From the IMG/VR virus record IMGVR_UViG_2778261153_000008: a DNA stretch of 25,598 nt. One strand, 5' to 3'. Positions 1 to 14,271 of the stretch are shown piece after piece (the first letter of the stretch is position 1; the number at the start of each line of letters is the position of its first letter). The translations under genes were made by a program, and so were the position numbers. Origin of the DNA: a virus (lineage: Duplodnaviria; Heunggongvirae; Uroviricota; Caudoviricetes). The notes beneath the pieces are model-generated. The model did no database searches. It worked only from the letters and a program-made list of their open reading frames with translations, and was not told where the DNA came from.

Positions 1-1053
1 TTACGGGGTAATGCCAACCGCTGCCGCCACTTTGTCGCCACTTGGCAGCGTTGCCAGAGGATTGAAACGGAGCGCCGTTTCCAGATGATCCGGTGCCAGA
101 TGTGCGTAACGCATAGTCATTTTTATATCGTGGTGTCCGAGAATTTTTTGTAAGGCCAGAATGTTTCCACCCGACATCATGAAGTGCGCCGCAAACGTAT
201 GGCGCAGAACGTGTGTGAGTTGACCGCGAGGGAGCACGATAGACGTTTTTTCCATCACGGATAAAAATTGAAAATAGCAGTCTGTGAAGAAATTGAACCC
301 ATCAAGCGCCATGATCTCTTCGTAAAGCTCTTTACTGATAGGGATGCTTCTGTTTTTCTTCCCCTTCGTTCTGACAAAGGTAATTCGGTATTTGGTCACC
401 TGTGAGCGAGTAAGATTTACGGCTTCACGCCAGCGTGCGCCTGTGCTTAAGCATATCTTAACTACCAGTGCCAGAATTGGGTCCTGACGTTTGCAATCAG
501 CCAGCAATTCAACAATCTGCTCATGGGTAAGCCATGCCATCTCTTTTTCTGCGATGGTGAATTTTCGCATGTTCTCCAGTGGGTTCGGATACGACCATTC
601 GCCCAGACGGGATAGTTCGCTAAAAACACTACTTAGATAGCTTTGCTCCAGGTTAATGGTGACCGGGCTTGCTCCTTTCTTCCATTTCTCGCTGAAGTAG
701 ATCTCGCCTGTCAGGCGTTTATCTCGATAGTGGGCAAACATTTTAGAGGTGAGATCGGTTGCAAGAGGATTGCCCAGAGCGTCAACCATCAACAGCAATT
801 TGTCATAGACATGCTGCCCAGCTGTCAGAGATTTACCATGTAGTTTGAACCATAGTTCAACCACGTCTTTCAGTGTTCGACGATCCACTGATTCACCCAG
901 CCAGGGCTTTGCTTCGGTTTCTTCCATCGTGTGACGCTCAAAAGCCAGAGCTTCGCCTTTGGTGGCGAATTGTTTACGCACACGACGTCCACTACGTCCG
1001 GCGGGGTAACATTCGCAAAGCCATTTTCCTGTGGTGAGTTTTCGTACTGCCAT
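1..1053 (-). CDS. int: Phage integrase, tyrosine recombinase (P2/186 family)
   Basis: 350-aa ORF; C-terminal tyrosine-recombinase signature (LRHTFAAHF ... GHHDIKMTMRYAHL); sits at prophage end beside the immunity region; stop codon at window positions 1-3 so the gene appears complete. Confidence 0.9.
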   Translation of the reverse strand: MAVRKLTTGKWLCECYPAGRSGRRVRKQFATKGEALAFERHTMEETEAKPWLGESVDRRTLKDVVELWFKLHGKSLTAGQHVYDKLLLMVDALGNPLATDLTSKMFAHYRDKRLTGEIYFSEKWKKGASPVTINLEQSYLSSVFSELSRLGEWSYPNPLENMRKFTIAEKEMAWLTHEQIVELLADCKRQDPILALVVKICLSTGARWREAVNLTRSQVTKYRITFVRTKGKKNRSIPISKELYEEIMALDGFNFFTDCYFQFLSVMEKTSIVLPRGQLTHVLRHTFAAHFMMSGGNILALQKILGHHDIKMTMRYAHLAPDHLETALRFNPLATLPSGDKVAAAVGITP

Positions 1054-1078
1054 AAAAAAGCCCTCATATCAGAGGGCT
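1054..1078 (-). terminator. Rho-independent terminator-like hairpin directly abutting the int start codon
   Basis: On the minus strand: A-GCCCTC-TGATAT-GAGGGC-TTTTTT followed immediately by the int ATG; GC-rich 6-7 bp stem, 6-nt loop, T6 tract. The 3' arm GAGGG doubles as the only plausible Shine-Dalgarno for int. Confidence 0.6.
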
Positions 1079-1136
1079 AAATTTAACTGTATATACAACC
1101 AGTAATCAATGTGTGATTACTATGAAACATACATTG

Positions 1137-2813
1137 CTAAGCAACATGCAGTTCATCGTTGGCGGAAGTTGCTGCTTTGCGCTCTTGCTCAATCGCCAGT
1201 GACTCTCTATATTCTTTCGCTTCCGCAAACATTGTCCATTGTGCGTTGATGTTCATATCTTCAATAACAGACTTAATTTCTTTAATATTTACGTTGAAAA
1301 ACTCTTTTCGTGAGTTAATTTTATTGACCTGTTTTTCGTTGAAGACTTTATGCAGATGATTTTCTAATGATGGTGCATCATCACTATAAATCATCGCATG
1401 AACATCGAACGAAAAAGGAACACTAGCATCACCGAGTTCACGAACACGATCAAGTGGTTCAAGGCGGCGTGTCATTCCAATTTTATATACATCTTCGCCA
1501 AATGAGCCAATATTACTAATTATATAAACGTGGCCTGATCTAGTTTGTTGAGCCATAGAAATAGCTCGTTGGTTTTTAGCTTCAGCTTCTTCATATTTTA
1601 ACTGTAGTTCAGCTATTTTTTGCTCTAAAGCTAAGCGTTGTTCTTCATTTGCAAGCATAAGCTCTTTTGTTGCTTTATTTATAGCTTGCTGAATAGCTTT
1701 CTCTTCTTTTTCAGCTTCTTTTATCGCTTTTTCATACTCCCTACGAGCTCTTTCCTCTTCACGAAGTTGTTCTTTAATCCTTCTTTGCTCTTCTTTTTCT
1801 TCGAGCATAATTTCATTAACTGCAACTCCCCATTTTAGCTCGTTGAGTCGAGCTTGAAGATAGATGTCACTTATTTTTGCGGACCTAAAGGCAGAACCAT
1901 TGTAATTTACAAGTTGAAACGCATCTTTTATCTCTTGGGAAAGTTTTCCAAAATTGTTGTGTTTGACTTTTGATAAAATACTGTCAACTCTTCCATTGAA
2001 GGCATCTAAAACAAAGTTGATAGCAGTATTACGCCTGTTTTGTTCGACATAATCACACGAAGCAGCTTTATTAGTTTTTATTAATGATTTTGTTAACTCC
2101 CTGGCTTTTTGTAATTCCTTACCTGCATCTGTAAACTCATAATTTTCTGCCAATTCATCGAGAACGCTACGGTTAGGGATGATCCATTCATCACCATAAC
2201 CTTCAATTTTATTTTTCATTGATTTGGCAACTGCTTCATATTTTTCTGCAAACTCTTTAGCTTCATATGCTGAACCAGCAATCTCTTTTGCTCTTTCTTC
2301 TGCATCGGAAATAATTTTCACTGCATTGTCATTAGCATTTGAGATCAGCTCATTTGCTTTACTATTGGCATTATCAAGACGTTCTTTAGCTTTCAGGCGT
2401 GCATCGCGAGCGTCTTTAGTAATTGCTATAGCTTCGCTATTAGCGTTGCTTATTTTTATCTGAGCTTGATAATTTGCTTCGTTTACTGTCTTAGCAGCCT
2501 TTATTTGGGCTTCTTCTATTTTTTGCCTGGCTATTGAGTCTGCATTTTTTATCTTATTCTCTGCTTCCATCACTGCGCTGTGCAATTCTACGTATTGCCA
2601 TAATGGCGCAGCTCGTCCTTCAAGCTCTGATAGATCTCGTACAGTCTGTGCTAATTCTTCTTGATTTTCTTTCAGTTGGTTGGAAAGGGCTATGTTGTTA
2701 GCTGTCAAGGTATTTATAGCCGCTTTATGTTTTTTGCTTTGCTTAAATAATATTACAGCTAGAATGGGGGCGAGAAATGCTAATAAGAATATAACGATGG
2801 AAAATGAATTCAT
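1137..2813 (-). CDS. Membrane-anchored coiled-coil protein with C-terminal T5orf172/MUG113 (GIY-YIG-like) nuclease domain; DUF4041-like architecture; cargo gene
   Basis: 558 aa. N-terminal hydrophobic helix (FSIVIFLLAFLAPILAVILF), long K/E/A-rich low-complexity middle region predicted coiled coil, C-terminal block GHVYIISNIGSFGEDVYKIGMTRRLEPLDRVRELGDASVPFSF...EFF matching the recalled T5orf172 consensus. Strongly AT-rich versus phage backbone. Start 20 nt downstream of cI stop, SD AAGGA; co-oriented with cI and int. Confidence 0.75.
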   Translation of the reverse strand: MNSFSIVIFLLAFLAPILAVILFKQSKKHKAAINTLTANNIALSNQLKENQEELAQTVRDLSELEGRAAPLWQYVELHSAVMEAENKIKNADSIARQKIEEAQIKAAKTVNEANYQAQIKISNANSEAIAITKDARDARLKAKERLDNANSKANELISNANDNAVKIISDAEERAKEIAGSAYEAKEFAEKYEAVAKSMKNKIEGYGDEWIIPNRSVLDELAENYEFTDAGKELQKARELTKSLIKTNKAASCDYVEQNRRNTAINFVLDAFNGRVDSILSKVKHNNFGKLSQEIKDAFQLVNYNGSAFRSAKISDIYLQARLNELKWGVAVNEIMLEEKEEQRRIKEQLREEERARREYEKAIKEAEKEEKAIQQAINKATKELMLANEEQRLALEQKIAELQLKYEEAEAKNQRAISMAQQTRSGHVYIISNIGSFGEDVYKIGMTRRLEPLDRVRELGDASVPFSFDVHAMIYSDDAPSLENHLHKVFNEKQVNKINSRKEFFNVNIKEIKSVIEDMNINAQWTMFAEAKEYRESLAIEQERKAATSANDELHVA

Positions 2814-2833
2814 TTTTAAATCCTTTTACTATA

Positions 2834-3430
2834 TTAATTTGAAACTATTGTACTTCTTATACAAGCAACTACTTCAATATCAGAAAATGCACATTCAAAG
2901 CTATTCTCTGTACTTGTAATTTTAATCATACCTTTTGGAAGCTTTGTGATTTTTCGAATGGAATAGGTTCCGTCGATGTTGATTAACCAGTGCCCATCAA
3001 GTACTTCAGAAAATTTTTGATCACAAATGTATGTGACGAGCCCATCCTGAATAACAATTGGTGATGAAAGATTTGCAGGAAGAAATGATGAATCGAAGAC
3101 ATATGAACCATCTTCAATCATTTTGCCTGCGGTAAGGCGAAACTTGGCAAGCTCTTCTGTAGCTGCTGTCAGCGAGCTTTGCTTAAGGCCTTGCCCGGTG
3201 GTTAACCATTTCAGTGAGGTTCCTGTTTCAAGAGCACATTGGATTATCCAGTCTGCAGGAAACGTATCCCGCAAATACCTGTTCGCCAGAGTGCTTTTTG
3301 ATACTTCCAAGTGATCAGCTAAAGCCTGTCGTGTCGTAAAGCCATAAGCTTCGACTAATCGCTCAATCGCAGCCTTACCACCTTTATTGGGATTTATTTT
3401 GATCTCATTTGGGTACTTTGATGTTGACAT
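2834..3430 (-). CDS. cI: Immunity repressor, phage 186 CI-like
   Basis: 198-aa ORF divergent from apl/cII; N-terminal HTH-like region (AYGFTTRQALADHLEVSKSTLANRYLR); size and position match 186 CI (about 190 aa). Start codon overlaps the -35 of the rightward promoter. Confidence 0.8.
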   Translation of the reverse strand: MSTSKYPNEIKINPNKGGKAAIERLVEAYGFTTRQALADHLEVSKSTLANRYLRDTFPADWIIQCALETGTSLKWLTTGQGLKQSSLTAATEELAKFRLTAGKMIEDGSYVFDSSFLPANLSSPIVIQDGLVTYICDQKFSEVLDGHWLINIDGTYSIRKITKLPKGMIKITSTENSFECAFSDIEVVACIRSTIVSN

Positions 3431-3477
3431 ATCTCTTTTGCGATCCTAGTATCAATTTTGTCCCCATTTGGGTACTT
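3406..3477. repeat. Two perfect 13-bp direct repeats CATTTGGGTACTT flanking the early promoter; candidate CI or Apl operator sites
   Basis: Copies at 3406-3418 and 3465-3477, 59 bp apart, bracketing the TTGACA/TAGTAT promoter; a degenerate third copy (TATTGGGAT) lies near 3385-3393. Confidence 0.45.
3424..3452 (+). promoter_or_regulatory. Putative early lytic promoter (pR-like) for apl/cII operon
   Basis: TTGACA (3424-3429), 17-bp spacer, TAGTAT (3447-3452); correctly placed about 70 bp upstream of the apl start codon in the cI-apl divergent region. Confidence 0.55.
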
Positions 3478-3525
3478 GTCACGATTACTACAGGCTCACC
3501 ACAAGCCAATAGGAGATGTTGCATC

Positions 3526-5330: not shown

Positions 5331-6175
5331 GCACCATCTTGAAATGGGCGGGAAATAAAACGGCCATTATGGCAGAACTGAAAAAATACCTTCCTGCTGG
5401 CCCGCGACTGGTTGAACCTTTCGCGGGTTCCTGTGCAGTGATGATGGAGACGGATTACCCCAGCTATCTTGTTGCGGATATTAATCCTGATTTAATCAAC
5501 CTCTATAAAAAGGTTGCCGCTGATTGTGAATCGTTTATATCTCGCGCCAGAGTTTTATTTGAGAACGCAAACAGGGAGATGGCTTATTACAACATAAGGC
5601 AGGAGTTTAATTACTCAACTGAAATTACTGATTTCATGAAAGCAGTATATTTCCTGTATCTCAATCGTCACGGTTACCGTGGTTTATGTCGCTATAACAA
5701 GAGCGGGCATTTCAACATTCCCTACGGTAATTATAAAAATCCGTATTTCCCTGAAAAAGAAATTCGTGCATTTGCAGAAAAAGCCCAGCGGGCAACATTT
5801 ATCTGCGCCAGCTTCGATGAAACGCTGGCAATGTTGCACGCGGGGGATGTTGTGTATTGCGATCCGCCTTATGACGGTACGTTTTCCGGTTATCACACTG
5901 ACGGCTTCACTGAAGATGACCAGTATCACCTGGCATCCGTTCTTGAACATCGGTCATCAGAAGGACATCCGGTCATTGTTTCTAACAGTGACACATCCCT
6001 GATCCGCTCGCTGTATCGCAATTTCACTCACCACTACATCAAGGCAAAACGCAGCATTGGCGTGTCAGCTGGCGAGAGTAAATCTGCAACAGAAATCATT
6101 GCCACCAAATCAGCTGGGTGGTTTGGTGTCGATTTTGCCAGCGGCTCTGACCGTACCGTTGAGGTACGCGCATGA
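5327..6175 (+). CDS. dam: DNA adenine methyltransferase (Dam-like, N6-adenine MTase)
   Basis: ATG 5327 (overlaps preceding stop as ATGA); N-terminal AdoMet motif (KWAGNK ... EPFAGSCAV) and catalytic DPPY motif ([11 protein letters not shown]). Confidence 0.85.
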
Positions 6176-7182
6176 ATGCTATCGATCCGCGTTGCTTTGC
6201 CTCAGGCACCATTAACGTCATCACTACTTCTGGTGGCAAAGATAGTCTCGCTCAATGGCTAAGAGCCATTGAAAACGATGTTCCGCATATTTCTGTATTT
6301 GCCGATACGGGTCATGAACATCCACAGACAATAGAATATCTGGATTATCTGGAATCAAAGCTGGGCAAGATTATTCGCGTCAAAGCGGATTTCACACGCC
6401 AGATAGAAGGGAAACGTAAATTCATTGCGGAAAAGTGGACCATTTCTCTCGTTGAGGAATGTGGTATGTCGACAGATGAGGCTGAGGAACGTATTTACCG
6501 GGCACTGGAAATCCTTAAACCAACCGGCGTTCCGTTTCTTGATTTGTGCATGTGGAAAGGTCGCTTCCCTTCAACAAAAGCTCGTTTCTGCACTTTTGAA
6601 CTGAAACATGAACCAATACGTACACAGGTAATCGATCCAGCTCTGGATGAATACGATGAGGTAATCAGTTGGCAAGGAGTCCGGGGGCAGGAATCACCGG
6701 AACGTGCATTGTTGCCTGAGTGGGAGGACGATGCAGACAATACTCTGGGGCTGCATGTTTATCGTCCGATCCTTAATTGGCTGCATGAGGATGTGTTTGC
6801 TATTGCCAAACGTCATGGCATTAAGCCTAACCCCCTTTATATGCAGGGATGCAGTCGTGTCGGTTGTATGCCATGCATTCATGCTCGCAAGTCAGAACTT
6901 GGAGAGATTTTCCAACGCTGGCCAGAAGAAATCCGCCGAGTGGCTGAGTGGGAAAGACTGGTTGCGGAATGTTCAAGACGTGGCAATTCAACGTTCTTTC
7001 CATCCACGCATGATCCGCGCCGTGCTGAAAAACGGATCGAAGTCATAACTGTTGATGCTTATGGCATTGAAACTTATCGGGACTGGGCCTTAACGACTCG
7101 GGGCGGTATGCAGTTTGACCTGCTGGCAGGCATGAATGATAAAGCGGTGTGCAGCAGTGTATATGCAGGAGTCTGTGAGTGA
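6172..7182 (+). CDS. PP-loop ATP pyrophosphatase, phosphoadenosine-phosphosulfate (PAPS) reductase-like family protein
   Basis: 336 aa; PP-loop motif SGGKDS near N-terminus; C-terminal cysteine cluster (CSRVGCMPC); start overlaps dam stop (ATGA), stop overlaps gene A start. Confidence 0.65.
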
Positions 7183-9620
7183 CAGAGATCAGCACAGGCC
7201 GTCTTGCCGATCCATTTGTCAGTGTAACTTCCGGTAGCATTGAGAATTCTGCCGGGGGTTATTCGTGGAATTTACCTAAGAAAGCCATTAACCCTTATCT
7301 GGACCCGGCGGAAGTTGCGCCGGTTTCTGCGCTTTCAAACCTGATCACTCTGTACGCTACCGATAACGAGCAGGAACAACTGCGCCGCGAGGCACTGAGT
7401 GATCAGGTCTGGGAGCGTTATTTCTTTAATGAATCCCGTGATCCTGTCCAGCGCGAAATGGAGCAGGATAAGCTCATTAGCCGGGCAAAGTTGGCGCATG
7501 AGCAGCAGCGTTTTAACCCGGACATGGTCATTCTGGCAGACGTCAGCGCCCAGCCCTCCCATATCAGCAAGCCGCTGATGCAACGTATTGAATACTTCAG
7601 CAGCCTGGGCAGGCCAAAGGCTTATTCCCGCTATTTACGTGAGACGATTAAGCCATGTCTGGAACGACTGGAGCATGTACGCGACAGCCAGCTATCTGCA
7701 TCTTTTCGTTTTATGGCAAGCCATGTAGGGCTGGACGACCTGCTGATTCTGCCTGAAATGAGTCAGGATCAGGTGAAACGCCTGTCTACCCTTGTCGCTG
7801 CGCATATGAGCATGTGCCTTGATGCAGCTTGTGGTGATTTGTATGCCACCGATGACGTTAAGCCAGAAGAAATCCGCAAGACATGGGAAAAGGTGGCAGC
7901 GGAAACCCTGCGTCTGGATGTCATCCCGCCTGCGTTTGAGCAACTCCGCCGGAAAAGAAACCGCCGTAAACCCGTGCCCTATGAACTCATTCCGGGTTCG
8001 CTGGCGCGTATGTTGTGCGCCGACTGGTGGTACCGGAAATTATGGAAGATGCGTTGCGAATGGCGGGAAGAGCAGTTGCGTGCTGTCTGCCTGGTCAGCA
8101 AAAAAGCATCTCCCTATGTCAGCTATGAAGCCGTGATGCATAAACGTGAGCAGCGCCGTAAGTCGCTGGAGTTTTTTCGTTCTCATGAACTGGTGAACGA
8201 AGACGGCGACACGCTGGACATGGAGGATGTGGTAAACGCCAGCAGCAGCAACCCTGCGCATCGCCGCAATGAGATGATGGCCTGTGTTAAAGGCCTGGAG
8301 CTTATCGCGGAAATGCGTGGTGACTGCGCCGTTTTCTACACCATTACCTGTCCGTCACGTTTCCATTCCACGCTCAATAACGGCAGACCAAACCCAACCT
8401 GGACAAATGCGACGGTAAGACAAAGCAGCGATTATCTGGTCGGCATGTTTGCTGCATTTCGTAAGGCGATGCACAAAGCCGGGTTGCGCTGGTATGGCGT
8501 GCGGGTGGCTGAGCCGCATCATGACGGTACGGTTCACTGGCACCTGTTGTGTTTCATGCGCAAAAAAGACCGCCGTGCCATTACTGCATTGTTGCGTAAG
8601 TTTGCCATCCGTGAAGACCGCGAGGAACTGGGTAATAACACTGGTCCACGCTTTAAATCTGAGCTGATAAACCCGCGCAAAGGAACACCGACAAGCTACA
8701 TCGCGAAATACATTAGTAAGAACATTGACGGGCGTGGTCTGGCTGGCGAGATCAGCAAGGAAACGGGTAAATCCCTGCGTGATAACGCTGAATACGTTAA
8801 TGCCTGGGCGTCTCTGCATCGTGTTCAGCAATTCCGCTTCTTTGGTATTCCGGGGCGTCAGGCTTACCGTGAACTGCGATTGCTGGCTGGTCAGGCGGCA
8901 AGGCAACAGGGCGACAAAAAAGCAGGTGCGCCGGTACTGGATAACCCGCGCCTTGATGCCATCCTGGCTGCTGCTGATGCTGGTTGTTTTGCCACTTACA
9001 TCATGAAGCAGGGTGGTGTACTGGTTCCCCGCAAATATCACCTCATCAGAACTGCTTATGAAATTAACGAAGAGCCGACCGCCTATGGCGATCACGGCAT
9101 TCGTATTTATGGCATCTGGTCACCCATTGCAGAGGGCAAGATCTGCACTCATGCAGTGAAGTGGAAAATGGTTCGTAAAGCCGTTGACGTTCAGGAGGCG
9201 GTAGCCGACCAGGGCGCTTGCGCCCCTTGGACTCGTGGCAATAACTGTCCCCTTGCTGAAAATTTGAACCAACAGGAGAAAGATAAATCAGCTGATGGGG
9301 ACCCCAGAACGGACATTACCCGCATGGATGACAAGGTGTTGCACGATTACCTGCACAGTATGAACAAAAAGGAGCGCCGGGAACTGGCTGCAAGGTTACG
9401 TCTGGTGAAACCGAAACGGCGTAGAGACTACAAACAGCGAATTACAGACCATCAACGACAGCATCTCGTCTATGAACTGAAATCCAGAGGATTTGATGGC
9501 AGCGAGAAAGAGGTCGATTTACTCCTTCGCGGCGGCAGTATTCCGTCAGGAGCAGGCCTGCGTATCTTCTATCGGAACCAGCGTTTGCAGGAAGATGATA
9601 AGTGGCGGAACCTGTATTAA
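7179..9620 (+). CDS. A: Replication initiation protein (P2 gpA-like rolling-circle endonuclease)
   Basis: 813 aa, GTG start with SD AGGAG (7167-7171); HUH-type motif ([12 protein letters not shown]) and downstream tyrosine motif ([10 protein letters not shown]); large early gene in the position of P2 gene A. Confidence 0.85.
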
Positions 9621-9713
9621 TTACGCTGGTTAACAATTCGTGCTCTTAATAATACCAGGTATATCAGGCTGATAAGCGTAAAAAAAACGTTTTACATCAG
9701 TAAGATTATTATA

Positions 9714-9733
9714 TACTGTAAATATAAACAGTG
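9714..9733. promoter_or_regulatory. LexA operator (SOS box) at promoter of downstream operon
   Basis: TACTGTAAATATAAACAGTG matches the CTGT-N8-ACAG LexA consensus (TACTGTATATATATACAGTA) at 17 of 20 positions; lies 40 bp upstream of ATG 9774 in an AT-rich intergenic region; a weaker half-site (ACAG at 9743-9746) follows. Confidence 0.75.
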
Positions 9734-9773
9734 GTTATGTATACAGTATTGCTTTGGTGTCATAGGAGGAAAG

Positions 9774-9962
9774 ATGCAGGACTATTTTTTGGAGTCTTTG
9801 AAGCTCCAGCGCATTGATTTTTTTCTTAAGCTTGTAGCGGCTAGTGAGTGTAGTGATGAAGAGAAGGGGCTGGCTTTGCAGTGGGTTTCTGAACTGACTG
9901 ATGAACTCATGGCAAAAATCAGAAGCCACGAATACAACCGCTCAATGGATGTCATCAGCTGA
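9774..9962 (+). CDS. Small SOS-operon protein, hypothetical (possibly N-terminal part of a Tum-like antirepressor)
   Basis: 62-aa ORF with strong SD (AGGAGG) 5 nt upstream; first gene after the LexA box; overlaps the upstream open frame of the DinI-like gene. Confidence 0.5.
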   Translation: MQDYFLESLKLQRIDFFLKLVAASECSDEEKGLALQWVSELTDELMAKIRSHEYNRSMDVIS

Positions 9963-9972
9963 GGTGACTTTT

Positions 9973-10206
9973 ATGCGCATTGAAATAATGATCGATAAAG
10001 AGCAGAAGATTAGCCAGTCTACCCTGGACGCCCTTGAATCCGAGCTTTACCGCAATCTGCGCCCCCTGTATCCCAAAACGGTAATCCGTATCCGTAAAGG
10101 TAGCTCTAACGGTGTGGAACTGACCGGACTGCAACTGGACGAAGAAAGAAAACAAGTGATGAAAATTATGCAGAAGGTGTGGGAAGACGACAGCTGGCTG
10201 CATTGA
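9973..10206 (+). CDS. DinI-like protein (Tum C-terminal-like, SOS-inducible)
   Basis: 77-aa product MRIEIMIDKEQ...KVWEDDSWLH resembles E. coli DinI in length and in N-terminal MRIE and C-terminal W-x-DD-W motifs; SD GAGGTG 6 nt upstream; downstream of LexA box. Confidence 0.7.
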   Translation: MRIEIMIDKEQKISQSTLDALESELYRNLRPLYPKTVIRIRKGSSNGVELTGLQLDEERKQVMKIMQKVWEDDSWLH

Positions 10207-10260
10207 TTTTGTCAATAGACGCTTGTTTTTACTAATCAAAAAGGGTTACATATGAGTGAG

Positions 10261-10293
10261 AGGCGATGTCAATCAGATATCGCCTTGTTTTTT
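10261..10293 (+). terminator. Intrinsic terminator/attenuator-like hairpin
   Basis: A-GGCGAT (10261-10267) pairs with ATCGCC-T (10279-10285), 11-nt loop, followed by TTGTTTTTTG; lies after the DinI-like gene and 27 nt before the lipoprotein start. Confidence 0.45.
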
Positions 10294-10319
10294 GTCAAGA
10301 AAAGAATAATAGGCTAAAA

Positions 10320-10997
10320 ATGAAAATTAATAATGTAGCGTTACCAATATCTCTTGCTGTAATCCTAACTGGTTGCGTGCCACATGCTTCTAACCGAAAT
10401 ATCACTGCTATTGAAGTGGTGAAGCCTGCTATTGGGCAAAGTGCTACCGCCTACATGGGCGATCCCATTATCACATCTGCTACTGGATTTAAAACGGACG
10501 TACTAGAACTTGGTGCGGCTAATGGTGCATTGTCTTCTATCGCTGCTGGTACATATTGCAGTGAGGGGAATGGAATTTACCGCAATTATCATAACCCTCA
10601 AGCTGTTGCGTTAAAAAATCTCTATGGGCAAATCGGTAACTATGTTGATTATGTTAGTTACGATGCTGCAAAAAATGAGATATCACCGCCAAATGGTACT
10701 TCTTATACTGCATCAGAAATTTCTATCAAACGTGTTCCTGATGGGCTGTGTCGAGTTAGTAACTCATTGGTTAAGACTATCGAATACAATGGAAATGCAG
10801 GCGGTGTAATGAAGTTCACCTATCGTGAATTTGCAAACGATATGGCTCGTGCAGCATTTACAACAGATTTTTCTGTAGATTCTAAGGGAAGTGACGTTAT
10901 CGCTTACAAAGGTGCCAAGTTCAAAGTGAACAAGGCTGATAACTCGTCTATTTCTTATACAATTATTTCTGGCTTTGACAAGGCTGTCACGTTCTAG
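10320..10997 (+). CDS. Lipoprotein, function unknown (cargo/moron)
   Basis: Product begins MKINNVALPISLAVILTGC: basic N-terminus, hydrophobic core, lipobox LTGC. Remainder Gly/Ser/Asn/Tyr-rich beta-type sequence. AT-rich relative to backbone. The ORF-track start at 10266 would add 18 non-signal residues and overlaps the hairpin. Confidence 0.7.
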   Translation: MKINNVALPISLAVILTGCVPHASNRNITAIEVVKPAIGQSATAYMGDPIITSATGFKTDVLELGAANGALSSIAAGTYCSEGNGIYRNYHNPQAVALKNLYGQIGNYVDYVSYDAAKNEISPPNGTSYTASEISIKRVPDGLCRVSNSLVKTIEYNGNAGGVMKFTYREFANDMARAAFTTDFSVDSKGSDVIAYKGAKFKVNKADNSSISYTIISGFDKAVTF

Positions 10998-11100
10998 GTT
11001 TCACGCTTACTTAGTATGTTACGATTTTGCACATTCTGCATAAACGCGCATGTCTATGCTGCATGAGATCGCATGATCGTTTGAGGATCTTTTGTGTTAA

Positions 11101-11126
11101 GGCCCGCCAGTTCTGGCGGGCTTTTG
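11101..11126 (+). terminator. Rho-independent terminator
   Basis: GCCCGCCA-gttc-TGGCGGGC stem-loop followed by TTTT; 104 bp downstream of lipoprotein stop, immediately left of putative cos. Confidence 0.7.
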
Positions 11127-11170
11127 CGTAGATCATGCAGGTGCATGAAAACCACTACATAAAGCGGGCA

Positions 11171-11189
11171 GGCGTGGCGGGGATACGAG
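11171..11189. other. Putative cohesive end site (cos) of the P2/186-like genome
   Basis: GGCGTGGCGGGGATACGAG; the first 13 nt match my recollection of the 19-nt cohesive ends of 186 (GGCGTGGCGGGGAAAGCAT) and P2 (GGCGAGGCGGGGAAAGCAC). Lies between the genome-right-end genes and the portal/terminase genes as expected. Confidence 0.5.
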
Positions 11190-11483
11190 CGCGCATTTAT
11201 ATAGAGTTAGAGAAATTTCTCTATGCTGCATGTCATAGTCATATTTGCTGATGCAAATGAAGGTTACAACTAAGGAGAACAACATAATTACCGTAAATAT
11301 AATTTACAATCGTTATTGTTTTGTAGGGTTATGAGATTGACGCATTATATTGAGATCAAGTTCAAAATTATATGTCAATTCATCAATTTTGACGTTTCTT
11401 TCGTTAAATAAATCGCATATCCTATCGTTATGATAAATCGGTCATGATATTTTTTAATTTAACGGAAGTAATCGGAGATTCTA

Positions 11484-13202
11484 ATGCATCCTGTTTTAAA
11501 CAGATATATTCAAGATTTAGCGAGTACACTTGATATAGCAGAAGAGCAAGATAAGTTATTTGAATATTTTTGCAATTTTGTTGTTACATCCAAAAATTAT
11601 CTTGGCCGATTTAATCCTGTCGACATTACGACTCAAGAAGATGATGCATCAATTGATGGCTTGGCGGTTCTAATAGATAGTGAGATCATACTTACCCAAG
11701 AGGACGCTATTGCTGCTTTCGAAAGTCACAAATCGTCATTGCCTGTAGAACTTTTGGTTATTCAAGCTAAATCAGGAGAAACCTTCCGGAAAGATAAAAT
11801 AGCTAATTTTAATTTGGGGTTGCAGGATTTATTCAGTTTGGACCCGAAACTACCTAATGGAAAGTACAATAAAGAAATTATAAAAATATTAAGTGTTATC
11901 ATCGATAATTTGAGAAAAGTCAAGAATAAACTTCCTGATATAAAGGTTTATTTTTGCACAAGCGGTGTCTATTCAAAAGAAAGAGAAATAGAAGCTTCTT
12001 TTAAGATTATTGAAGAAACTTGTAAAGGGGCAGATCTGTTTGGTGAAGTTGAGGTTAGCCCATTAGGTCGTAGCGAACTAATGAAATTGTGGCGCTCAAT
12101 AACCGAAAAAAATGAGGCTACTTTAGAGTTCATAAATTTCATGGGCATCAATGAAATGCCTGGAATTCCTCAAGCATATATTACAACAATAAAAGCTAAG
12201 GAGTTTATTGAAAAAGTTGCGATGGATGAAGATCGCAAAATTCGAGAGGAGGTATTTGATGAAAATGTACGAGCATTTTTAGGTGAAGACAATCCTGTTA
12301 ATAAGGATATTACTAAAACCTTGCAATCTGAAAAATCGAATCAATTCGCTGTGCTAAACAATGGCGTGACCATCATTGCTCCTGAGGTAACCCTCACCCC
12401 AAGTAAAAAAACTATACACATAGCTAATTATCAGATCATTAACGGTTGCCAAACTACCAATACACTATTCAATAACTTTGGAATATTAACGGATGCGACT
12501 GAACTCGTTGTTAAGTTTATACAATCTAGCGAGGTTGATGTCGCAATTGACATTGTAACTGCTACCAATAATCAATCCAAAGTGGAGAGTTCTAGCTTTT
12601 ATGCGTTGAGAGAAAAGTCTAGGATGATACATAAATTTTTTGAAATACAACGGGATGTTGAAGGCAGGGAACACCTTTATTTTGAAAGAAGAGAAGGTGA
12701 GTATCGTGGTAAATCTATCAAAACTACAAAAATATATGACATTGTTGAATTGGCAAGGTGTTTCTTATCTGTATTCAAACAGAGGCCACACAATGCCGCT
12801 ATGTATGTGAAAAAAGTATTAAATGAAAGTAAGGATATATGTTATTTAGATACTGATAACGAATATGCATATTACACAGCAGCTTATATTTGTTATAAAT
12901 ACAGCACGTTGATTAATGGTCGTAAAGCTAATGCTAAGAAATATAATAAGCTACGTTGGCATATTGCTATGCTTTATCCTTGGGTTGTGAGCAAAAGTAT
13001 GGATGTTCCTGCGCCCAATTCAGGAAAGATAACTCCTTTTTGTAATAATATCATGAAAACATTGACAACTGATGAATACGTGGAGAATTTCAAAGAATGT
13101 CAAAAAATAATTGATAAACTTCCATTCCCTACAGATGACCAGATCAAACGAGGAAAATACACCAGCGATCTGAGAACGATGGCAGCAGAACATTTTAAAT
13201 AA
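11484..13202 (+). CDS. Hypothetical 572-aa protein; candidate single-gene anti-phage defence/abortive-infection protein (family unverified, possibly AIPR-like)
   Basis: Long uninterrupted ORF with SD GGAG 6 nt before ATG; very AT-rich compared with flanking packaging genes; own AT-rich upstream region; followed by strong hairpin terminator. No Walker A motif; conserved-looking block ANYQIINGCQTTNT; located between cos and portal gene. Confidence 0.6.
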   Translation: MHPVLNRYIQDLASTLDIAEEQDKLFEYFCNFVVTSKNYLGRFNPVDITTQEDDASIDGLAVLIDSEIILTQEDAIAAFESHKSSLPVELLVIQAKSGETFRKDKIANFNLGLQDLFSLDPKLPNGKYNKEIIKILSVIIDNLRKVKNKLPDIKVYFCTSGVYSKEREIEASFKIIEETCKGADLFGEVEVSPLGRSELMKLWRSITEKNEATLEFINFMGINEMPGIPQAYITTIKAKEFIEKVAMDEDRKIREEVFDENVRAFLGEDNPVNKDITKTLQSEKSNQFAVLNNGVTIIAPEVTLTPSKKTIHIANYQIINGCQTTNTLFNNFGILTDATELVVKFIQSSEVDVAIDIVTATNNQSKVESSSFYALREKSRMIHKFFEIQRDVEGREHLYFERREGEYRGKSIKTTKIYDIVELARCFLSVFKQRPHNAAMYVKKVLNESKDICYLDTDNEYAYYTAAYICYKYSTLINGRKANAKKYNKLRWHIAMLYPWVVSKSMDVPAPNSGKITPFCNNIMKTLTTDEYVENFKECQKIIDKLPFPTDDQIKRGKYTSDLRTMAAEHFK

Positions 13203-13210
13203 TATATACA

Positions 13211-13231
13211 GCCTCTCAAGGTTTGAGAGGC
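13211..13231. terminator. Bidirectional rho-independent terminator between convergent genes
   Basis: GCCTCTCAA-ggt-TTGAGAGGC perfect 9-bp stem, T/A-rich flanks on both sides (ATTGTTATTT on plus; TGTATATATT on minus); lies between the 572-aa gene stop and the Q stop. Confidence 0.8.
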
Positions 13232-13239
13232 ATTGTTAT

Positions 13240-14271
13240 TTAATCTAATATGTACTCGCTAAATTTTATTACTGATTCTCCTACAAATTCATTTAATCCT
13301 TTCACTCTTTCTTTAAGTGGGATGAGTTCGTTACGTACAAATACTTTACTGGCCTTCTCAATATCACCAAAACCGCCAACATTTTGCGGGATGATACCCA
13401 TGAGTTGTGGCGGCACGCGGTGCGCAGCCATCATGTCGTCACGGCTCACGTTTTTGATATTCAGAAACTCATCCTTCGCTGCGACTTCTGACAACGGGAT
13501 AATCTGAAGCCCGTCCTTTTTGCCGTTCGGCGAGTACATAAACAGGTTACGGAAGTTGCCTGGTCCTTTGGCGCTTTTCATTGCGTTGCGGAGGTTGTTT
13601 ACATCCTCCTGGTTCTGTGCGGCATCGGTCATGTACATGATGAAGCCTGCATGACTACCGTTAATGTAATACTTGCGGCGGAACAGCGTGGCGGATTCGT
13701 TGAGCAGGGCTGACGGAATGGCAGAAAGATAACCGGGCAGGCCGTAGATCTCCTGGTTGATGTCCGGTTCCATCAGATGAAAGATGCTGCCTTTCGTGAA
13801 CTGATACGGCTGGGTTGTCATACCGTATTGCACAAACCAGTAGGTATCTAGGTCTAACCCGCGTCGGGTGTATTTTGCCAGCGCAGGCTCAAGGGCGATA
13901 ACTTCACCGAATCGGTTCGTGCGTTTCTCCAGGTAGGCGTTACCAAATACCAGATAGTCCTGCACAAAACGCGAAAAAGCCTGCTGGCTGAGCAGCGGGT
14001 GAGGGATGTAGGTACTGGTCAGAATATTGCATTTCACCGCAATCGGTGAGCTGTGATGCACGGCGGCGCGAAAGGTGCGCGCCAGCCCGTCAAAACTCAC
14101 TGGCGGCTCATACCATCGATCTGTCTGTACGCATTCCACATAGTCCAGCAGTTCACGGCGGTCCAGAACAGGAACGGGATCGCCGAAGCTGAATGCTTCG
14201 GCTGAAGTCTGGCTTTTATGCTGGATCTGATTCATCGCAGCTACGCGGTTTTTTTTACTCTTTCCCATCAA
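13240..14271 (-). CDS. Q: Portal protein (P2 gpQ-like)
   Basis: 343 aa (P2 Q is about 344 aa); leftward gene immediately preceding the large terminase subunit, as in P2; 4-nt overlap with P. Confidence 0.85.
   Translation of the reverse strand: MMGKSKKNRVAAMNQIQHKSQTSAEAFSFGDPVPVLDRRELLDYVECVQTDRWYEPPVSFDGLARTFRAAVHHSSPIAVKCNILTSTYIPHPLLSQQAFSRFVQDYLVFGNAYLEKRTNRFGEVIALEPALAKYTRRGLDLDTYWFVQYGMTTQPYQFTKGSIFHLMEPDINQEIYGLPGYLSAIPSALLNESATLFRRKYYINGSHAGFIMYMTDAAQNQEDVNNLRNAMKSAKGPGNFRNLFMYSPNGKKDGLQIIPLSEVAAKDEFLNIKNVSRDDMMAAHRVPPQLMGIIPQNVGGFGDIEKASKVFVRNELIPLKERVKGLNEFVGESVIKFSEYILD

Follow-up and report, generated by a model that had tools for sequence, protein, structure and literature searches.

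A SNIPE (PD-lambda-1) family nuclease gene between cI and int of a 186-like Escherichia coli prophage

Gene order at the cI-int interval

The window, i.e. the whole stretch of viral DNA analysed here (25,598 nucleotides), carries on its minus strand an open reading frame of 558 codons (1137..2813, stop codon included), which starts with ATG and encodes a protein of 558 aa. When the same bases were shuffled in 500 rounds, the longest open frame reached only 196 codons, with a mean of 93. Upstream lies its presumed operon partner, the gene of a 186-type CI repressor of 198 aa (2834..3430, minus strand; Pfam Phage_CI_repr and Phage_CI_C). The downstream neighbour, 83 nt beyond the end of the gene, is a P2/186-type tyrosine integrase of 350 aa (int, 1..1053, minus strand; Pfam Int_N and Phage_integrase). 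An earlier sequence-only reading of this DNA had described a 558-aa gene between cI and int, and its coordinates and sequence features were all recovered as described. This includes the strong AT-richness relative to the backbone (GC 0.37 versus about 0.50). GC is 0.369 in the gene, with a GC3 of 0.27, compared with 0.399 in cI, 0.486 in int and 0.498 in the whole window.

The stop codon of cI (TAA, 2836..2834) and the ATG of the gene (2813..2811) are separated by exactly 20 nt, and both genes lie on the minus strand, where a 186-like prophage has its lysogenic operon, in line with the spacing and orientation claimed before. The spacer holds a ribosome-binding site, AAGGA (2821..2825, minus strand), 7 nt before the ATG, and neither a promoter, in a crude consensus scan, nor a terminator was detected in it. 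The same scan placed a pL-like candidate promoter of the leftward cI operon at 3455..3482 (minus strand), faced by a pR-like site on the plus strand (3424-3452), and this face-to-face arrangement resembles the annotated pR and pL of phage 186, in which a single lysogenic operon, transcribed from pL, comprises cI, int and cp69. Since the gene is on the same strand as cI, follows it after 20 nt and has its own ribosome-binding site with no intervening promoter or terminator detected, lysogens most likely express it constitutively, on the repressor transcript, as far as co-transcription can be read from the anatomy of the locus.

The leader of int

A terminator-like hairpin with a U-run (1059..1078, minus strand), found by sequence scan and folding, abuts the ATG of int at 1053. 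The 3' arm of this hairpin, GAGGG, is likely the ribosome-binding site of int. The hairpin occurs in two alleles and is conserved in relatives whatever their cargo, and also where there is almost no cargo, which marks it as an element of the backbone. It had been proposed that the gene ends in its own terminator just before int; the hairpin and T-run are indeed present at 1078..1059, but they are common to all variants, and because the same hairpin occurs in relatives lacking the gene, the terminator is not the gene's own.

A second, nested hairpin (1083..1140, minus strand) begins where the last gene of the lysogenic operon has its stop codon (1137..1139). It is conserved across relatives, in which its outer repeat reads ATGTATG...CATACAT. 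The region 1040-1140 folds at -29.5 kcal/mol (z = -3.87), with leaders folded as single sequences and covariation judged by eye only. A promoter-like TTGATT-N17-TAAATT overlaps this hairpin, and the version in relatives, TTGACA-17-AAAAAT, scores 10/12.

Domains, fold and membrane anchor of the protein

The protein is a membrane-anchored, helix-rich DUF4041 and T5orf172/GIY-YIG nuclease. Residues 4-23 (SIVIFLLAFLAPILAVILF; 2745..2804, minus strand) form an N-terminal transmembrane anchor with a maximum of 2.99 on the Kyte-Doolittle scale (19-residue window, residues 4-5), which is helical in the AlphaFold2 model and is followed by the basic stretch KQSKKHK. As judged by hydropathy and the positive-inside rule only, the basic residues after the helix would fit an N-out, C-in topology. 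An N-terminal hydrophobic segment was also found in 106/124 full-length representatives.

The anchor leads into a long helical stalk or 'adapter' (residues 24-264; 2022..2744, minus strand). Searches of the first 264 residues against Pfam and NCBIfam gave no identifiable adapter domain; the coiled-coil matches to DivIVA (among them NCBIfam DivIVA_Wag31, a weak match in the stalk), V-ATPase G and DUF6377 were all sub-threshold. The DUF4041 domain (PF13250, now labelled 'SNIPE' in Pfam) follows at residues 267-322 (1848..2015, minus strand) with a score of 46.6 bits (gathering cut-off 27 bits), and the region of residues 261-330 has a net charge of +4. Linker helices (residues 323-425; 1539..1847, minus strand) connect it to the T5orf172/GIY-YIG nuclease domain (residues 427-520; 1254..1535, minus strand), which was matched above the gathering cut-offs by Pfam T5orf172 (427-520) and MUG113 (443-520). 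In the full-length AlphaFold2 model (pLDDT 84.3), helices span residues 2-68, 72-179, 181-204 and 316-425, the latter consisting of 316-387 and 390-425, and the elongated order of TM segment, helix, DUF4041, helix and alpha/beta domain is the same as in SNIPE. The N-terminal TM helix, the extended coiled-coil-like region and the combination of DUF4041 with a C-terminal T5orf172/MUG113 GIY-YIG-like domain, all anticipated from the letters of the sequence, thus hold up by hydropathy, by the modelled long helices, and by profile matches together with the fold, respectively.

Comparisons with solved structures were less informative. The best match of the full-length fold search was Slx1 with E=0.25, and when PDB sequences were searched by profile, the matches were confined to helices of ATP synthase b and BRIL fusions, none of them an informative homologue. 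Structurally solved GIY-YIG nucleases (Slx1, I-TevI, the UvrC N-terminal domain, Eco29kI and PD-T4-3) show only 12-28% identity; unlike these, the nuclease domain in the window falls into the T5orf172/MUG113 branch and shares its polypeptide with a membrane anchor and DUF4041.

Membership in the SNIPE (PD-lambda-1) family

The gene clearly belongs to the SNIPE (PD-lambda-1) family and is thus a recognised prophage defence gene, not a new system. The PADLOC model PD-Lambda-1 (PDLC03976) matched residues 114-550 over model positions 35-481 of 491 with E=4.7e-120. A BLASTP comparison was made with a 500-aa E. coli protein (L003). This protein served as a stand-in for the published PD-lambda-1 protein RCP76574.1, encoded by a gene of 1,503 nt (PMC9519451), since it is equally long and has all nine of the marker residues that the SNIPE paper names. 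Identity was 49% over 293 aa (residues 265-555, E=3e-76), the linker helices included. Nothing was aligned before residue 265, and the first 195 residues of the reference remained unmatched. This mismatch is not disqualifying, because the N-terminal adapter was reported to be of very low conservation and variable length across 474 SNIPE homologues (Saxton et al., Nature 2026, PMC13190303). For the same 264 residues without a BLASTP match to the tested protein, however, its partner proteins and phage range are not transferable to the protein in the window.

Both proteins are encoded in E. coli prophages and share the order of N-terminal TM segment, helical stalk, DUF4041, helical linker and GIY-YIG/T5orf172 nuclease. 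By pairwise alignment, the catalytic glutamate is kept (E414 of SNIPE corresponds to E484, codon 1362..1364, minus strand); E484 is invariant across 59 diverse homologues, and all invariant catalytic positions are retained. They differ in length (500 versus 558 aa) and at several DUF4041 or linker positions that tune specificity (SNIPE E223, N250, W257 and K305 correspond to S292, Q320, K327 and Q375). The genomic setting is different as well: the reference-type gene is a nin-region gene of a lambdoid prophage, encoded on the strand opposite to its neighbours, whereas the gene in the window directly follows cI in a 186-like myovirus prophage.

Identical database proteins carry names referring to DUF4041 or SNIPE, and "SNIPE associated domain-containing protein" is already used in newer RefSeq records. 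The gene should be labelled as a SNIPE/PD-lambda-1 defence nuclease rather than as a "chromosome segregation ATPase" or hypothetical protein.

Variable cargo behind cI

A survey covered 80 IMG/VR prophage loci whose integrase shows at least 99% identity; it identified the gene in 11/80 loci, and in 46/80 only a minimal cI-int interval was present. At the same place, other prophages carry Old, KAP NTPase/PDC-S20, PDC-M18 or PDC-M11, so that related prophages do hold different cargo at the cI-int junction, a possibility raised by the sequence-only reading. The idea of a conserved core gene was dropped, as most prophages with the same integrase are without it. Variable presence at a fixed backbone position together with the deviant GC (0.37 versus 0.50) identifies the gene as accessory cargo. 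A Klebsiella prophage whose integrase is different has the order cI, SNIPE, int as well.

Among 5,426 complete E. coli genomes, the cI allele and the SNIPE-family gene were each found in 165 at a coverage of at least 80%, and in 48 at an identity of at least 99% in both searches. This cI was present at 95-100% identity in all 11 SNIPE-bearing loci of the IMG/VR survey. The matching counts suggest that the gene travels with one cI allele.

Accessory defence hotspots are known from P2-like phages; the published E. coli work centred on the gpA-portal and Z/fun hotspots, and a cI-int slot was noted in Vibrio K139-like phages (Rousset et al. 2022, PMC9122126; bioRxiv 10.64898/2026.02.27.708500). 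The present locus is similar in that a repressor-integrase slot holds differing defence genes in otherwise near-identical prophages. It differs in that the slot is part of the lysogenic operon, and in that the counts suggest a swap of cargo together with the cI allele.

Proposed function and alternative explanations

The sequence-only reading had regarded the architecture as not experimentally characterised. This was not correct: the DUF4041-T5orf172 defence architecture is already known, having been validated as PD-lambda-1 (Vassallo et al. 2022, PMC9519451) and renamed SNIPE when the mechanism was resolved (Saxton et al., Nature 2026, PMC13190303; bioRxiv 10.1101/2025.11.03.685801). SNIPE is a membrane-localised nuclease with an experimentally demonstrated N-out, C-in topology, which cuts incoming phage DNA during injection (PMC13190303). 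Its DUF4041 domain binds both DNA and the tape measure protein, the protein associates with ManYZ and the tape measure protein, and the exchange E414A abolished defence (PMC13190303). Only siphoviruses were affected, and myoviruses were no target in the published screen (PMC13190303). Homologues of PD-Lambda-1 in S. thermophilus likewise protect against siphoviruses (bioRxiv 10.1101/2024.10.22.618286). The model places them in the same defence family; they differ in their distant host, chromosomal location, own promoter and an activity that is very sensitive to small sequence changes.

With high probability, the gene encodes a SNIPE-family defence nuclease that is accessory cargo of a 186-like (Peduoviridae) E. 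coli prophage. By analogy to SNIPE, the long helical stalk would hold DUF4041, the domain through which SNIPE binds DNA as well as the infecting phage's tape measure protein, and the second helical linker would carry the GIY-YIG nuclease, so that incoming phage DNA would be cut while crossing the membrane. Tethering to the membrane would keep the nuclease off the host chromosome. The lysogen, and with it the prophage, would be protected mainly against siphoviruses, the carrier phage itself being a myovirus. The analysis itself demonstrates that the protein belongs to the family, together with its domain order, its fold and catalytic residues, the accessory nature of the gene and the numerical match with one cI allele; how the protein sits in the membrane, that it cuts DNA during injection and which phages it targets are inferred from the characterised homologue.

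Two functions had been guessed at, superinfection exclusion and abortive infection, and the exclusion of incoming phage matches what is known of the family. In an abortive-infection toxin, infection would free or activate the nuclease, host and phage DNA would be degraded and the infected cell would die. That such a nuclease can attack the chromosome is indicated by SNIPE without its TM helix, which is highly toxic and cuts host DNA (PMC13190303), and the same prophage bears an Abi-type gene, AbiU. However, SNIPE acts as a direct defence at the stage of DNA injection with survival of infected cells, and the membrane-bound form left host DNA uncut even when this was artificially membrane-tethered (PMC13190303). 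Together with a protein sequence that gives no hint of a release or activation switch, this makes the toxin quite improbable. It is also improbable that the protein is an inactive or very narrow-range family member, hitch-hiking with the cI immunity allele and giving no measurable protection against common phages. From two S. thermophilus homologues with 98.5% mutual identity, one was completely inactive and the other strongly protective (bioRxiv 10.1101/2024.10.22.618286), and because this pair differed in protection, activity of the protein in the window is not assumable from homology. Further, by the matching genome counts the gene seems tied to a single cI allele, and its spread could reflect immunity type. 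On the other side, the frame is intact at 558 codons, the invariant catalytic positions are all retained, and orthologues of 82-85% identity are kept at full length in Klebsiella, Citrobacter, Salmonella and Enterobacter, which points to purifying selection acting on the protein as such.

A role in the phage life cycle, for example as an endonuclease for homing or for the degradation of host DNA, or as an SMC-like 'chromosome segregation ATPase', is the least probable of these explanations and very doubtful. T5orf172/GIY-YIG domains are known from homing endonucleases, and the ATPase label is given to the gene in the GenBank records of the phages KP12 and vB_EcoM-813R9. This label was rejected, as a Walker A motif was looked for in the protein and none was found, and the SMC match TIGR02169 reached 15.5 bits against a cut-off of 729.4 and reflects coiled coil only. 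The TM anchor is at odds with a homing enzyme, the gene has the lysogenic and not the lytic orientation, and its absence from most prophages with the same integrase speaks against a core function.

Modest extensions of the family picture

For the defence nuclease, only three features modestly extend what has been published: an apparent one-to-one link between this SNIPE subfamily and one immunity allele, the placement of a SNIPE-family gene inside a lysogenic operon, and a conserved int leader after whatever cargo is present. None of them alters the picture of how the SNIPE family works.

A tentative reading, regarded as possible at best, has two parts: the adapter and DUF4041 of this subfamily might recognise another injection route or another type of tape measure protein, and the interval between cI and int might be a plug-in expression slot. 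The 264-residue TM-plus-stalk adapter and the altered DUF4041 surface might direct the protein to a route other than ManYZ/lambda. K327 occupies the position of W257 in SNIPE, at which the change W257R retargeted the protein to Bas14-type phages (PMC13190303). In the slot, cargo might ride on the repressor transcript, and the int leader, with its hairpin hiding the int ribosome-binding site and its promoter-like site, might shield int from read-through. If the slot works in this way, immunity allele and defence cargo might be exchanged as one module.

AbiU lies in the classical gpA-portal hotspot of the same prophage. With SNIPE behind cI and AbiU, the prophage has at least two defence genes and is one more temperate phage arming its lysogen.

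Identity and architecture of the gene

A 558-aa reading frame with an ATG start (1137..2813, minus strand) lies between the genes for a 186-type CI repressor upstream (2834..3430, minus; Pfam Phage_CI_repr and Phage_CI_C) and a P2/186-type integrase downstream (1..1053, minus; Pfam). Since shuffling these bases 500 times never gave a longest frame above 196 codons (mean 93), this is not a chance ORF. The placement and the short same-strand distance to cI, both proposed in a sequence-only reading, were borne out by the ORF call, the Pfam neighbours and the coordinates: exactly 20 nt separate the cI stop (2836..2834) from the start codon (2813..2811), and this spacer contains an AAGGA ribosome-binding site. 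The gene is also AT-rich relative to the backbone, as had been stated: its GC content is 0.369 (GC3 0.27), while int has 0.486 and the window as a whole 0.498. The low-GC island also takes in cI, which is AT-rich too (GC 0.399).

The proposed domain architecture was confirmed by Pfam matches to DUF4041 (residues 267-322, 46.6 bits, cut-off 27), T5orf172 (427-520, E=9.4e-17) and MUG113 (443-520, E=1.6e-19), all three above their curated cut-offs. The PD-Lambda-1 model of a defence-system library matched near full-length (E=4.7e-120, residues 114-550 on model positions 35-481 of 491), and in PHROGs the protein belongs to phrog_1847, a group of unknown function. Its sole strongly hydrophobic segment, residues 4-23 (Kyte-Doolittle 2.99), is followed by KQSKKHK and agrees with the suggested N-terminal transmembrane helix. 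An AlphaFold2 model based on an alignment of 59 diverse homologues (mean pLDDT 84.3) predicted N-terminal helices 2-68, 72-179 and 181-204, a small, mainly helical domain at about 214-306, two long linker helices (316-387 and 390-425) and a C-terminal alpha/beta domain. Y430, G436, G439, G446, T448, E459, F469, E484, N497 and F506 are invariant in this alignment, and R449 and R450 are nearly so. We take these residues to represent the GIY / YIG / Arg / Glu / Asn pattern of GIY-YIG enzymes, which speaks against the absence of a GIY-YIG fold, the case that would have refuted the sequence-only reading.

Relation to characterised SNIPE

The architecture had been described as not experimentally characterised, which is out of date: the family is PD-lambda-1/SNIPE, and its mechanism has been published. 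PD-lambda-1 was discovered by functional selection in E. coli, with RCP76574.1 of ECOR26 (1,503 nt) as the source gene (PMC9519451), and later work examined it closely under its new name, SNIPE (bioRxiv 10.1101/2025.11.03.685801; Nature 2026;653:861, PMC13190303). SNIPE cuts lambda DNA during injection and has ManYZ and the lambda tape measure protein as partners; DUF4041 promotes DNA binding, the E414A exchange in the GIY-YIG domain abolishes defence, and removal of the transmembrane helix yields a toxic protein that relocates to the nucleoid (PMC13190303; bioRxiv 10.1101/2025.11.03.685801). In the BASEL collection it was active against siphoviruses only, independently of ManYZ, and specificity mutations in DUF4041 had their counterparts in escape mutations affecting the tape measure protein (PMC13190303; bioRxiv 10.1101/2025.11.03.685801). 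Homologues from S. thermophilus also protect against phages (bioRxiv 10.1101/2024.10.22.618286).

As reference for alignment, a 500-aa "DUF4041 domain-containing protein" of E. coli 730V1 (locus L003:4984-6486) was used, which equals the published gene in length and has all nine residues named for SNIPE (E223, N250, L253, W257, E264, K305, I308, T319 and E414). Its residues 196-487 align with window residues 265-555 (49% identity, E=3e-76), E414 corresponding to E484. Window residues before 265 gave no alignment with this reference, and the N-terminal region is 264 aa long compared with 195 aa. Across 474 homologues this region is little conserved and varies in length, and it was proposed to be a specificity "adapter" (PMC13190303; bioRxiv 10.1101/2025.11.03.685801). 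At the specificity positions, the window protein has S292 (E223), Q320 (N250), L323 (L253), K327 (W257), E334 (E264), Q375 (K305) and I378 (I308). W257R is a gain-of-function change in SNIPE and common among homologues (PMC13190303; bioRxiv 10.1101/2025.11.03.685801); the basic K327 at this position is reminiscent of it. The reference gene itself lies in the nin region of a lambdoid prophage and adjoins a same-strand gene for a 515-aa HD-domain protein (L003:6846-8393).

Expression and the int leader

In phage 186, the lysogenic operon comprises cI, int and cp69, is transcribed from pL and pE, and has overlapping cI and int genes. A consensus scan of the window found a face-to-face promoter pair upstream of cI (3424-3452, plus; 3482-3455, minus) and, from there to the SNIPE start, nothing on the minus strand that resembles a promoter or a terminator. 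Since cargo moreover starts 12-43 nt past cI on the same strand in all variants of the cI-int slot, co-transcription with cI is the simplest reading.

The SNIPE gene had also been credited with its own terminator. A terminator-like hairpin followed by T6 does run into the int ATG (1078..1059, minus), but it is part of an 83-nt int leader (window 1054-1140, minus; also L009:6900-7003, a locus with minimal cargo, and other compared loci) that is kept in every slot variant, even with almost no cargo, and is thus a backbone element. In this leader, an inverted repeat opens a few nucleotides past the last upstream stop; the stem predicted for the window begins directly with the stop codon (1137..1139). 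Two hairpin alleles occur, both stable folds (-14.8 to -17.5 kcal/mol, z -3.2 to -5.9), and their differences preserve pairing (A-U to U-A, C-G to U-G). GAGGG in the 3' arm is likely the sole plausible int ribosome-binding site. Transcription of cI and cargo may terminate at the hairpin, which may also keep int from being translated. The leader might insulate int from the cI-cargo transcript. A promoter-like site in the leader (TTGACA-17-AAAAAT in most relatives, 10/12) is weaker in the window (TTGATT-N17-TAAATT).

The cargo slot and distribution

The prophage adjoins rcdA/ybjJ in E. coli. The int-to-cII interval was measured in 80 IMG/VR loci with an integrase at least 99% identical. It was minimal (about 1,332-1,376 bp, cI included) in 46 of them, and the SNIPE gene was found in 11 (97-100% identity). 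The remaining measurable loci hold other cargo at the same place: P2 Old (PADLOC E=1.4e-234), KAP-family NTPases (PDC-S20), a PDC-M18A/B pair, PDC-M11A and several unknown genes. The gene is thus accessory and not core, and related prophages do differ in cargo at this junction, as the sequence-only reading had considered. Even the minimal and commonest variant is not empty, as L009 has a 63-aa ORF there (6621-6812, plus) with a signal-peptide-like N-terminus and several cysteines. The cI-int hotspot was previously noted in Vibrio K139-like P2 relatives (PMC9122126), and the integrase-to-primase interval is a minor P2 hotspot with 8% of P2 systems (bioRxiv 10.64898/2026.02.27.708500).

One 198-aa cI is shared by all 11 SNIPE-bearing loci (95-100% identity). 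In complete E. coli genomes, this cI allele and the SNIPE gene, each counted by itself, gave equal totals, 165 at ≥80% coverage and 48 at ≥99% identity. A Klebsiella orthologue (84% identity) keeps the order cI (198 aa), SNIPE, int with a different integrase, so repressor and cargo seem to travel as a single module. In many relatives that carry other cargo, the 190-200-aa CI is replaced by a longer one of about 300 aa, which combines two Phage_CI_repr HTH domains with a single CI_C domain (L005:6087-7025, L006:6047-6925, L007:6627-7550 and L002:2903-3844, all minus; domain matches). This long form could either act as the immunity repressor or belong to the cargo. In L007 a KAP NTPase is preceded by two CI proteins, one of 189 aa and a double-HTH one of 307 aa.

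The window's SNIPE gene occurs in 165 of 5,426 complete E. coli genomes (≥80% coverage), and full-length orthologues with 82-85% identity are found in Citrobacter, Salmonella, Klebsiella, Enterobacter and other genera. Of 1.84 billion cluster representatives, 3,384 were related at E<=0.001, and 1,413 still at E<=1e-30; an N-terminal hydrophobic segment was present in 106 of 124 full-length representatives. The RefSeq name has changed from "DUF4041 domain-containing protein" to "SNIPE associated domain-containing protein", and PF13250 is now labelled SNIPE in Pfam. Klebsiella phage KP12 and Escherichia phage vB_EcoM-813R9, both Peduoviridae, share the int, SNIPE gene and cI block at 96% identity. 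Their records (ON470620.1, locus L001:4136-5812; OM835953.1) call the gene a "chromosome segregation ATPase". This is a misannotation arising from the coiled coil, to which the resemblance is limited: a Walker A motif was sought in the window protein and is absent, and the SMC model scored 15.5 bits against a cut-off of 729.

Proposed function

The gene is thus already known: it is catalogued within a family that has been characterised by experiment, and the prophage hotspot it occupies is of a known kind. Very probably it encodes a membrane-tethered GIY-YIG nuclease of the SNIPE family that would be produced in lysogens and would cleave incoming phage DNA at the membrane. Myoviruses were unaffected by SNIPE in the published screen (PMC13190303; bioRxiv 10.1101/2025.11.03.685801), and as the carrier is itself a myovirus, this would suit a gene that keeps out competing phages but spares its own phage type.

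The earlier functional guess, superinfection exclusion or abortive infection, was essentially right, although its second half conflicts with the direct-defence phenotype published for SNIPE, which makes an abortive-infection toxin quite improbable. An inactive or very narrow-range family member hitch-hiking with cI has a precedent in an inactive S. thermophilus homologue (bioRxiv 10.1101/2024.10.22.618286), but the reading frame and the catalytic residues are conserved across genera, and this explanation is unlikely as well. Least probable is a function in the phage life cycle or as an SMC-like ATPase, against which stand the accessory status of the gene and the missing P-loop.

Other islands and genes of the prophage

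The classical P2 tin/old hotspot, which separates the gpA replication gene (7179-9620) from the portal gene (13240-14271, minus), is occupied by a second low-GC island (9621-13239, GC 0.374). This island contains a 243-aa protein (10266-10997, plus) for which no family match was found and a 572-aa AbiU/AIPR protein (11484-13202, plus; PADLOC AbiU E=9.3e-107), so that with SNIPE the prophage has at least two defence genes. Between the Dam methylase gene and gpA sits a gene for a 336-aa PAPS-reductase-domain protein (6172-7182, plus; Pfam PAPS_reduct E=2.4e-33), which shows weaker PADLOC matches to SspD, BrxP and DndC. E. coli L73 and AR_452 lack it in regions that match in other respects.
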